Shown: piece by piece, positions 33,001 to 36,000 of the stretch
Position numbering within the stretch: the stretch's first letter is position 1
Layout of the letters: each line of letters begins with the position of its first letter
Virus record (IMG/VR): IMGVR_UViG_2778261513_000004
Reading direction: 5' to 3' (one strand)
Origin: a virus
Taxonomy: Duplodnaviria > Heunggongvirae > Uroviricota > Caudoviricetes
Length of the DNA stretch: 42,950 bases
Position numbers: made by a program

Positions 33001-36000
33001 CTGCTGACAAATGCATGGTGTCAGCCAGGTAATCAGCTATGTACAGTTGCATGTATGGTAATGCGGCCATAATTGCCCCGTATGATGCTGCCCGGTGACT
33101 TAGAATAAGCACAAACAGCATGAAAACTTTTGCTTAATGAACAATGACAGAATCGTCGGAAGACCCACCGCCGCTGAAATGCGCTTTCCGGTAAACGGCC
33201 TGTACAGCATCATCATGTGCATCAATTGCCGTATTCAGCGCTTCCTGAGCCGCCAGTAATGCGCGACGTTCCAGGGTGTCAAAAACGCTGAGGCGGTGTC
33301 GCAGTTCGCGCGGAAGAATTGCCAGGATTGCTGGAATCAGCTTCTGGATTTTTTCCCTTTGCGCCTTTGTTTCACCTTTTAACCAGCGGTGATAGATGTT
33401 TTGCTGATTGTTCCAGTCCTTGCCTGGCGCCAGGGCTAATTCACTCTCCCCCTGGCGCAAATATTCTTCAGTAATTGCGTTGGCAACCCACGCCTGACCT
33501 TTTTCGGCAGCCAGAGCTAACAACACTGATTCAATGTGCTCATGCCTGATTTTCATGAATACCCTTACCCGCCCGCTTTGCCTTACGATATTTGTCATAG
33601 ATATTTGAGTCGTACTGAAGCTCCCCGCCAGATGCCTCTTGCAGACGCATCGCGCGGCCTTCAGGAACCAGTTCCCCCCATTGAGAAACAGCAGATGGAT
33701 CAACGCCAGCAGCTTTCGCCACTTTGGCTTTCGTGCCGTAATAATTAATTACGTCTGATTTAAACATTGCACCTCCAATATTGAGTTTTCTCAATGTTAA
33801 TCACTCAAGGAATCTCAAGTCAAGGGTTATTAAGATATCTAAATATGAACGAGAAAACTTTAGGTCAACGAATTAGAGAAAGACGCAAGCAGGTAGGCTT
33901 AAGTCAAAGTGGTTTAAGCAAAGCTGCTGGCGTTTCTGGCTCATCAATTTCATTATGGGAAAGTGACCATACAGCCCCGCGCGGGCAAAATTTGCATAGA
34001 CTCGCCGAGGTATTACAATGCTCACCGACTTGGATACTGTTCGGTGATGAGGATAAAACTCCGGATGCCCCAGTTTCACTCAATAGCCCCTTAGACTTAT
34101 CGGAAGATGAACTGGAGATGTTGCGACTGTATCGCGCACTTCCAAAATCCGAACAACAAGCACAAATCAGTGAACTCAGCGCTCGAGTTGAGAATTTTAA
34201 TCGCCTATTTACTGAGCTATTAGAAGCTCGCAAGCGTAACAAACATCAATAATCACCCCATCACAAATTTTTAAAGCCTTACATTTCAATGTATTGGCTT
34301 TATCTTGAGTCAAATATTGAGTTTTCTCATCAAAAACACTTGACCAAAAACAATGAGAAAACTAAATTACATCCCATCAAAACACCGCACGGTGTTCTCA
34401 GCAAACAGTTCCGCCACCCGGCGTTAAGGGGATACGAAGATGATCGCAGATGAAAAGCAGGGACTGGTGTTAAAAATAGATACCAGCCCCCTGAGACATC
34501 AGATTGAGAAGTTATACAAACTACTTGTTCCTGCGGTTTTTAACTGTCCGGATGATTTTATTGATTGTTTTATTAAAGTGTTCACTGAAATCAGAATCTT
34601 TGATTTCCGCAAAACAATCACCGCAGATAAAACGATCATTGTCAGAGCCAGAGTGCTCGTCGATCTCAATGTAGCGAGATCGGCAATGAGGACAGCGAAA
34701 TTTAATATCCATAATTAATATCCTTACAGCAAATTACCATTTGTAAGGATATCACCTCACCTGATGTGGTTAAAAGCAGGTCGTAGGCTCCACGATACGG
34801 AGCAACTATGAAGCCAATTCCCCCAGCGTTAAGGGAAAATGAGGTCAACATGGATACTATCGATCTTAGCAACAACGAATCCCTGGTGTGTGGCGTGTTC
34901 CCCAACCAGGATGGAACGTTCACCGCCATGACGTATACCAAAAGCAAAACGTTTAAAACCGAAGTTGGCGCGCGTCGCTGGTTGGAGAAGTACACAGTAA
35001 GCTAACGATTAAAACGTCTGCTCCTACTGTTCCAGAATAACTTCATAAAGTGGGAGTATTTTTCGGTGACGAGATAATAAGAACAGTTTGCGCCATCACT
35101 CTGATGTTGAATGATGCCCTTCCGTTCTAATTTTTTCATAACCGGGTTACGGAAAGGAGAAGTGATAATAAGATTTCCTGTTTTAAGGAAATCTTTAAAT
35201 ACAGCGATTTCTTTCTCAGATAAACGAAGCAATACTCGTTGCTCTGGTAGCAATGAATAATGTTTTTGAATATGTGCTCGCAATCTTGAGAAGGAAATGG
35301 CAACCACGAAAGAAAAGGCAAAAACTATAATCTGAAAGAGCCAGGTTATTTCAGTATAAGCATTAAATACGACAGCAAACTCTTTCGGTATCAGCCAGAG
35401 AGTGAGGCCAAAAATGATAATCGTGTACATAAGTCTTTCGATGTGGCTCTTTAGCAAAAAGTTTCAACAATGGAGTAAATACATCCAACATTTCAATAAC
35501 TCTCGACTGTAAGGGTATTGAAATGTTAACACAAGCTCTCGCTGTAGGGGTATAGCCGAGACCACCGAAGCCCGGAGGTGGTGAAATAAAACCGGGCACA
35601 ACACGAAGGCGCATTTCCGATATCCATAAAGAGTCGGTCTTGTCTGTTAAATATAAATGGTGGGAGTGCGCCTCCGGTTGTGAATAACGACATTGCTGTG
35701 TGTAGTCTTTGGCGGCATCGGTTTTTTCTTGAAGTTCGACTGATGTCCGCCCTTTTTAAAGTGAATTTTGTGATGCGGTGAATGCGGCTAAGCGCACGCG
35801 GAACAGTTAAAAAACTCTATATTAGTTTGGGGGGGTATTTGTATCCGGTGTTAATTGTTAACTGGTTAACATCACCTGGAGGCACCAGGCACCGCATCAA
35901 CAAAGTTCATTTGAAAAAATGGAGATGATTATGATTGCTCATCACTTCGGAACTGATGAAATACCACGTCAGTGTGTAACCCCTGGCGATTATGTTCTTC

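Follow-up and report, generated by a model that had tools for sequence, protein, structure and literature searches.

TTGAG-TTTT-CTCAA palindromes as probable operators of a DicA-like repressor in a Rac-like prophage of Escherichia coli

The virus record IMGVR_UViG_2778261513_000004 was analysed over its whole length of 42,950 bases (hereafter the window, to which all counts of motifs, promoters and LexA boxes refer). It is a full-length Rac-like lambdoid E. coli prophage with a DicA/DicC-type immunity module. Palindromes of the form TTGAG-TTTT-CTCAA lie on both sides of the repressor gene, in the gap that separates it from a divergent cro-like gene and in the region past its stop codon. Their placement, conservation and relation to the Qin prophage of strain K-12 indicate that these palindromes are very probably the operators of the DicA-like repressor, arranged much as they are in Qin. 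The module adds a new specificity to the DicA/DicC (Qin-type) switch, which has been described before, and is not new in kind.

The perfect inverted repeat ATTGAGTTTTCTCAAT occupies positions 33780-33795, between the cro-like and repressor genes, whose start codons are 77 bp apart. Its 14-mer core, TTGAGTTTTCTCAA, is referred to below as the Oc-equivalent, after the corresponding site in Qin (Table 1). A preliminary description of this DNA had noticed the repeat but placed it 13 nt upstream of the cro-like start; the ATG is the complement of 33765-33767 and the actual distance is 12 nt. Of the three near-copies that the same description listed past the repressor stop codon (34250-34252), two hold up. 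One is ATTGAGTTTTCTCAT at 34316-34330, starting 64 nt past the stop; the other is ATTTAGTTTTCTCATT, on the minus strand at 34352-34367. Their cores are designated OL1 and OL2. The third, CTTGAGTCAA at 34304-34313, has the letters originally given but is not conserved: relatives read TTTTGCATTAA or CTTGCGCCAA at this place, so that it is probably no site and was dropped as an operator copy.

When up to 2 mismatches are allowed, TTGAGTTTTCTCAA has three matches in the window against 0.56 expected, a number reached by 3 of 100 shuffled sequences. All three lie in the intergenic DNA, about 270 nt, on the two sides of the repressor gene, a placement with a probability, by simple arithmetic, of about (270/42950)^3. 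An exact 17-mer, AATATTGAGTTTTCTCA, is common to the intergenic site and the first downstream site. The looser pattern TTGAG-N4-CTCAA at 2 mismatches is not enriched across the window (18 found, 23 expected), which means that the signal rests on the full 14-mer, central TTTT included. Extension of the palindrome to 20-22 bp (AATATTGAG...CTCAATGTT) was rejected because the flanking bases vary freely among relatives. A fourth copy of the 9-mer GAGAAAACT, at 33851-33859, was likewise set aside; it spans codons 3-5 of the repressor, is missing in Buttiauxella and is probably a coding coincidence. A text search of the literature for the operator sequence found no paper.

The closest known system is the DicA/DicC switch of Qin, a cryptic remnant, whereas the Rac-like prophage of the window is full-length and has genes for head, tail, lysis and toxins. 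The window's repressor is 56% identical to DicA and its cro-like protein 59% identical to DicC. Gene order is the same in both prophages: the ydaT/ydfX side, cro, intergenic operators, repressor, terminator, downstream operators with a promoter, a conserved leader and a DUF1391 gene. In Qin, the operator Oc (TTGTTAGTCATAACTAACAA), a 20-bp inverted repeat by dicC, binds DicA in vivo and loses binding upon single-base changes (Yun et al., PMC3441716). Oc overlaps the -10 element of the dicC promoter, whose start was mapped by rapid amplification of 5' cDNA ends (5'RACE; PMC3441716). The dicC promoter reads TTGACT-17-TATCTT with Oc directly after it; the window's predicted pR-like promoter reads TTGACT-18-TAACAT, and the Oc-equivalent core overlaps the last base of the TAACAT -10 element and the predicted start. 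Two further candidate sites complete the intergenic array. The centre of the Om-equivalent is 24 bp from that of the Oc-equivalent, and the centre of the Oa-equivalent 25 bp further on, compared to 25 and 26 bp for Oc, Om and Oa of Qin. The assignment of the middle site is tentative; in phage PPompW, the Om-equivalent differs from that phage's OL1 by 1 mismatch.

The likeness extends to the region downstream of the repressor. The Qin promoter dicBp (CTTGACC-17-TAATCT) occupies the same position as the window's predicted pL-like promoter, shares its TTGACC -35 hexamer and is followed by the same leader. A DicA-operator-like sequence, ATGTTAGTCATGGCTAATCT, covers the dicBp spacer and -10 element and another lies 35 bp upstream; in the window, OL2 and OL1 are found in these places, 36 bp apart with OL1 upstream. 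What sets the two prophages apart is the operator itself, TTGAG-TTTT-CTCAA in the window and TTGTTAGT-CATA-ACTAACAA in Qin, along with the recognition helix of the repressor, SGSSISLWES and SHVSVSQWER, respectively. A Rem homologue is present beside hokD in window and Qin alike. As judged from its sequence, the window has the features of a DicA/DicC module: a short c2-like repressor, a divergent P22_Cro gene, an Oc site over a predicted promoter, a dicBp-equivalent and a Rem homologue.

Conservation was examined in a set of 84 closely related loci, which comprise 25 distinct intergenic and 46 distinct downstream sequences. Among these variants, the Oc-equivalent and OL2 are at least 97% invariant over their 14-bp cores. 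The bases beside the Oc-equivalent vary (AT, AG, AA or GC on the left; GTT, AGT, GGT or GCT on the right) and the five bases between the pL -35 hexamer and OL2 are hypervariable. The OL1 core is kept with few single changes. Copies of the module with at least 80% coverage are found in 796 of 5,426 complete E. coli genomes. Phages mEp460_ev081 and HannyBb and O157:H7 prophages carry the module at about 90% DNA and 95% protein identity over its whole length, and their operator cores are the same. The dicAC and rem homologues of mEp460_ev081, a functional temperate phage, are already noted in the literature. The Rem proteins of this group are only 60% identical to the window's.

A single-protein search of viral contigs returned only relatives with 95-100% identity, and more distant loci were collected by a family-alignment scan with one genome per species, which yielded 28. 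The flanks have diverged in two homologues from Buttiauxella, which have 74-75% protein identity and the helix SDSSISLWES, and the motif is kept at all three positions: TTGAGTTTTCTCAA or CTGAGTTTTCTCAA beside cro, ATTGAGTTTTCTCAAT or CTGAGTTTTCTCAAT upstream of the -35 hexamer, at the place of OL1, and TTGAGAAAACTAA(C/A) over the -10 hexamer. Other recognition helices go with other motifs. Repressors with the Qin-type helix (I)SHVSVSQWER are paired, at the same offsets, with TTAGT-N4-ACTAA (TTAGT-CATA-ACTAA in Qin itself), those with (V)AHVTISQWE(R) (PPompW, Rac 442/2, E. albertii, BUCT708) with TTAG(A/G)-N4-(C/T)CTAA, and those with SSVSVFKWE(N) (phiES15, LSJC7, E. whittamii) with TAAC-TTTT-GTTA. 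Such joint change of motif and helix is what cognate operators would be expected to show. Across 23 family members, not fully independent since they include some near-identical pairs, 19 have a 14-mer common to the intergenic and downstream regions at 2 or fewer mismatches. A same-length control taken from the repressor coding region reached this threshold in none of the 23, its best matches having 3-4 mismatches in all of them. Thus, homologues do have the motif at equivalent positions, one of the points on which the preliminary description had staked its proposal. That one operator family serves both the cro/repressor gap and an OL/pL-like element, as it suggested, agrees with the Qin positions, the overlap with promoter hexamers, the conservation footprint, the Buttiauxella sequences and the concerted change of helix and motif.

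The repressor itself points in the same direction. Its residues 1-72 align without gaps to the N-terminal domain of P22 c2 (E 2.7e-16), this helix-turn-helix (HTH) domain lining up residue for residue. The P22 operator consensus is TTAAG-N4-CTTAA, with the 5 bp-N4-5 bp geometry also seen in the window. The window's repressor-proximal site, TTAAGATATCTAAA, is close to the P22 operator, and the cro-like protein belongs to Pfam family P22_Cro. The c2 DNA-binding domain has been solved on operator DNA (2R1J, 3JXB). From c2 to the window's repressor, helix 3 differs by N32G, V33S, A34S and Q37L, four differences that fit the changed half-site. Similarity ends with the DNA-binding domain: P22 c2 is 216 aa long, has an S24 autocleavage domain and is RecA-inducible (PMC10448788), whereas the window's protein, of 135 aa, has an unrelated, short helical C-terminal part. 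In a Pfam search the repressor matched HTH families only (HTH_3), with no Peptidase_S24 match at E values up to 0.01, and the chain ends at residue 135; the preliminary impression of an XRE HTH protein devoid of an S24 domain was therefore correct. DicA, too, has neither the Ala-Gly cleavage site nor the C-terminal domain (PMC10448788). The C-terminal part of the window's repressor is homologous to the DicA C-terminus and includes the motif LP(E/K)SEQ...RARVENFN(R/K)LFEELL, which belongs to the 36 columns invariant across six family members. A longer open reading frame (ORF) starting at 33794 (152 aa) was discarded in favour of the ATG at 33845 on the basis of DicA homology and the RefSeq annotation.

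Several points weigh against the identification of the palindromes as operators of this repressor. For this immunity type, binding, transcription starts and induction are deduced by comparing sequences. The close relatives share at least 90% DNA identity, so that their conservation is partly plain shared ancestry. In Qin, DicA bound only Oc in vivo, not Om or Oa, and hence the window's middle and repressor-proximal sites may not be repressor sites (PMC3441716). A single-sequence AlphaFold model of the repressor is all helical but of low confidence (mean predicted local distance difference test score, pLDDT, 59) and too weak for a fold search. Rem variants do not track the repressor type, phage Rac 442/2 combining an identical Rem with a repressor that is only 52% identical. 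Finally, OL1 and OL2 also make up a 15-nt inverted repeat able to fold. They could, then, be the two arms of an RNA hairpin in transcripts reading through the repressor gene, or of a DNA cruciform, acting as a terminator, an attenuator or a processing site; the arms (34316-34330 and 34353-34367) are 93% complementary and the 63-nt stretch folds at -11.2 kcal/mol (z -4.2). We regard this as highly improbable. Single changes in one arm are left uncompensated in relatives (TTGAGCTTTCTCAT in locus L009, TTGAGTTTTATCAT in L014, L010 and L026, ATGATAAAAC in L012), and the downstream sites of PPompW and Qin are not complementary in their centres. Moreover, the pL -35 hexamer would sit in the loop, both arms precede the predicted pL start, another terminator hairpin, itself conserved, is already present upstream, and the same 14-mer occurs alone in the cro/repressor intergenic region. 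A chance resemblance between promoter regions that are both A+T rich, which the absence of enrichment of the loose pattern might seem to favour, is scarcely credible in the face of the exact shared 17-mer, the location of all three 14-mer matches in 43 kb beside the repressor gene, the retention of the motif in another genus and the outcome of the family-wide controls. Alternatively, the main protein on the palindromes might be the cro-like (DicC-type) one or the cII-like YdaT instead of the repressor. The Cro proteins of lambda and P22 use the same operators as the repressor, and the cro-like recognition helix differs from that of DicC (DPSAVSQW versus RLASLYSW) and could follow the motif as well. 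Shared use by Cro is, however, expected and compatible with repressor binding, and a primary role for either protein appears improbable given that Oc, the Qin equivalent, is the DicA site defined in vivo by single-base changes (PMC3441716) and that the 5-N4-5 geometry is that of the operators of c2, to which the repressor HTH aligns gap-free. The box published for YdaT, TTGATT-N6-AATCAA (PMC9986795), is unrelated to the palindromes; in the window it has 8 matches against 5.3 expected, which is no enrichment, and none is meaningfully placed.

A last alternative concerns induction rather than binding. With no autocleavage domain in the repressor, induction most likely does not involve RecA-stimulated self-cleavage; the likely routes are antirepression by the Rem-like protein, a flip of the repressor/cro switch that is spontaneous or driven by stress, or both. 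Induction could nonetheless depend on the SOS response if LexA controlled an antirepressor, the arrangement known from the Gifsy prophages, phage 186 and N15. The Gifsy-1, Gifsy-2 and Gifsy-3 repressors of Salmonella (GfoR, GtgR and GfhR) are short proteins without a cleavage domain, inactivated by small antirepressors (GfoA, GftA and GfhA) encoded outside the immunity region; DicA and RacR have been placed in the same group (Lemire et al., PMC3121763). Rem, furthermore, was found through similarity searches that began from GfoA, and an antirepressor acting in trans from another prophage of the host is possible. Yet, whereas the Gifsy antirepressor genes have LexA boxes and are SOS-induced, the pattern CTGT-N8-ACAG is absent from all 42,950 bases, the 20-mer LexA consensus has no match in the window at 3 or fewer mismatches, and no LexA box is visible upstream of the rem homologue. 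In K-12, dicBp shows no induction by mitomycin C, and spontaneous switching is recA-independent and DicC-dependent (PMC10448788). An SOS route thus seems unlikely, and RecA-independent induction is plausible by analogy with Qin.

The candidate antirepressor is the Rem homologue. In K-12, Rem derepresses dicBp 165-fold (PMC10448788). The window's protein is 100% identical to one annotated "rem: prophage antirepressor" in phage Rac 442/2, and its gene, located behind the hokD terminator, has a promoter-like sequence of its own (TTGAGG-16-TAGAAT, 24747-24720). Among 50,697 phage records, 16 carry Rem homologues, and 14 of these 16 also carry a full-length DicA-type repressor. That the window's Rem acts on the window's repressor is assumed. 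The failure of Rem to follow the repressor type would fit an action on the conserved C-terminal part of the repressor, much as Gifsy antirepressors act across heteroimmune repressors. The leader of about 75 nt that runs from the TAGAAT -10 element to the rem start (TAGCGCGCAGGGAGAAGAGGGATGGACCC...GGGGA..., within 24640-24830 on the minus strand) is conserved in the window, Qin, mEp460 and PPompW, which differ in the -35 region; this leader might hold control of rem expression.

The following model takes sequences, positions, homology, conservation and helix co-change as directly observed, and we infer from them the binding, promoter activity, cooperativity, self-activation and route of induction. 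A repressor dimer would bind the TTGAG-TTTT-CTCAA operators through its P22 c2-like HTH. On the Oc-equivalent it would cover the -10 element and start of the cro promoter, and so silence cro and ydaT (cII-like) along with the replication genes. Occupancy of this site may also stimulate a weak repressor promoter, by analogy with DicA at Oc (PMC3441716). The Oa-equivalent contains a -10-like TAAGAT (33831-33836), 8 nt ahead of the repressor ATG, and no Shine-Dalgarno sequence precedes this ATG in any family member compared, which suggests that the repressor mRNA is leaderless or nearly so. A leaderless message is known for lambda cI. On OL2, the repressor would cover the -10 element of pL, the promoter predicted to drive the early-left operon (ydaF, kilR, recET, xis and int), probably helped by OL1. 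The cro-like protein probably binds this set of sites too, with its order of preference reversed.

Immunity of this type, common in E. coli, also occurs in functional temperate phages (mEp460_ev081, HannyBb), and the operators provide a testable map of the switch that would silence a toxin-carrying Rac-like prophage. The TTGAG, TTAGA, TTAGT and TAAC types form a natural series of HTH/operator pairs in which to follow changes of specificity in a P22 c2-like domain. pL and pR could serve as reporter targets for triggers of Rem-type antirepressors, stated to be unknown in the DicA literature (PMC10448788). It seems conceivable, although we hold the idea with some doubt, that the TTGAG-TTTT-CTCAA / S-G-S-S-I-S-L class is a separate immunity specificity, the Gln to Leu change together with N32G, V33S and A34S retargeting a c2-like HTH from TTAAG/TTAG(N) to TTGAG, and that the intact prophage, with toxin genes of the LT-II and pertussis-like kinds, is induced by a Rem-type antirepressor in response to a non-SOS signal. 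If true, this would tie induction of an enterotoxin phage to something other than DNA damage. The findings are of use for annotation and as an experimental handle; they do not describe a new kind of system.

Table 1. Coordinates of the immunity module, its candidate control elements and the Rem homologue in the window.
Feature	Position	Strand	Basis or remark
Rem homologue, candidate antirepressor, 86 aa	24379..24639	-	59% identity to K-12 Rem, E 8e-28; beside hokD, as rem in Qin
YdaT / cII-like gene downstream of cro	33134..33556	-	Pfam YdaT_toxin E 3e-12; PHROG 163 CII-like activator E 2.5e-36
cro-like gene, DicC homologue, 75 aa	33540..33767	-	Pfam P22_Cro E 1.8e-18; 59% identity to K-12 DicC, E 7e-34
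Oc-equivalent operator (candidate), perfect palindrome TTGAG-TTTT-CTCAA	33781..33794		offset -64 to -68 from repressor ATG, as tested DicA site Oc of Qin
pR-like promoter of cro-like gene, TTGACT-18-TAACAT	33794..33823	-	promoter scan; predicted function
Om-equivalent, candidate weak middle operator, TCAAGGAATCTCAA	33805..33818		2 mismatches to TTGAG-N4-CTCAA; tentative
Oa-equivalent, candidate repressor-proximal operator, TTAAGATATCTAAA	33830..33843		unchanged in all relatives
Repressor, DicA homologue, 135 aa	33845..34252	+	56% identity to K-12 DicA over 127 residues, E 1e-50
Terminator-like hairpin after repressor gene	34272..34302	+	RNA fold -11.3 kcal/mol, z -3.55; conserved in all close relatives
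OL1 (candidate operator), TTGAGTTTTCTCAT	34317..34330		1 mismatch to Oc-equivalent; centre about 52 bp upstream of predicted pL start
pL-like promoter (dicBp-equivalent), TTGACC-17-TAAATT	34340..34368	+	promoter scan; hexamers conserved in relatives
OL2 (candidate operator), ATGAGAAAACTAAA, minus strand TTTAGTTTTCTCAT	34353..34366		2 mismatches to Oc-equivalent; over pL spacer and -10
Conserved pL-operon leader, as in front of Qin ydfA	34370..34432	+	alignment to Qin upstream of ydfA

The T-rich run behind the terminator-like hairpin reads TTTATTTTG in most relatives and TTTATCTTG in the window. About 2,500 of the 5,426 complete E. coli genomes match the pL leader, which carries no annotation there. 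An Rfam search of positions 33000-37000 gave nothing on the operators or the leader; further downstream, a sequence resembling the small RNA DicF (35697-35752, plus strand) scored 44.9 bits, just short of the Rfam gathering score of 48, with an E value of 9e-8. Next to it, at 35764-35904, is an STnc100-like match, and the two are located in the early-left operon upstream of kilR. The segment 34433-34840 is inserted between the pL leader and ydaF, is absent from Qin, mEp460_ev081, HannyBb and the O157:H7 prophages, and is flanked by the repeat CC(C/A)G(G)CGTTAAGGG(G/A)A. It contains two almost fully overlapping candidate ORFs, one of 92 aa on the plus strand, annotated in RefSeq and without a family match, and one of 63 aa on the minus strand, a four-cysteine zinc-ribbon with weak Lar-like and PHROG 5602 matches. 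A perfect 15-nt inverted repeat, AACGCCAGCAGCTTT / AAAGCTGCTGGCGTT (33702-33716 and 33920-33934), arises because the HTHs of the cro-like protein and the repressor both encode K-A-A-G-V with the same codons on opposite strands.

Past the repressor region come a DUF1391 gene of the ydaF/ydfA type (34808-35005), then sieB, kilR, recE, recT, xis and int, the latter beside ttcA. K-12 Rac occupies the same locus (ttcA-intR side) and has the same flanking ydaT-like gene, ydaF, sieB, kilR, recE and recT, but the window's repressor shows no similarity to K-12 RacR (158 aa; BLASTP E 2.8). A Rac-like phage backbone thus carries a DicA-type immunity cassette that has been exchanged relative to K-12 Rac, and the cassette boundaries are visible as conserved flanks common to phages of other immunity types. 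Downstream of racR in K-12 Rac (locus L119, 2100-2200), two repeated sites, ATTAGGCATAGCCTAT and ATTAGGCATTACCTAT, flank a TTGACA -35 hexamer, despite the unrelated repressor.

On the other side of the module, a replication initiator-like protein (31844-33121, minus strand) combines a DUF1376 (YdaU-like) domain, an inserted T5orf172/MUG113 (GIY-YIG-like) segment and a DnaT DNA-binding domain; its gene and a lambda P-like gene (31390-32055) have about 200 nt in common. An AAA_21 ATPase gene (26827-28029, minus strand; PADLOC AriA E 2.6e-41), situated between the nin region and the replication genes, adjoins a gene for a DUF4435 protein (25918-26820, minus strand; AriB E 4e-9). These AriA/AriB-like genes form a PARIS-like anti-phage defence pair.

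The closest relatives of the window among complete genomes are type II enterotoxigenic E. coli strains. The A chain of a heat-labile enterotoxin is encoded at 18891-19670 on the minus strand (Pfam Enterotoxin_a E 5e-117); a 133-aa ORF (18533-18934, minus strand) overlaps this gene just downstream, where a related genome has an annotated small enterotoxin gene. The late region also carries, on the minus strand, genes for a pertussis-toxin-like S1 subunit (21770-22495) and an S2/S3-like subunit (21238-21687). These toxin genes match the Rac-like prophages with LT-II or pertussis-like toxins mentioned by Jobling (PMC5917428).

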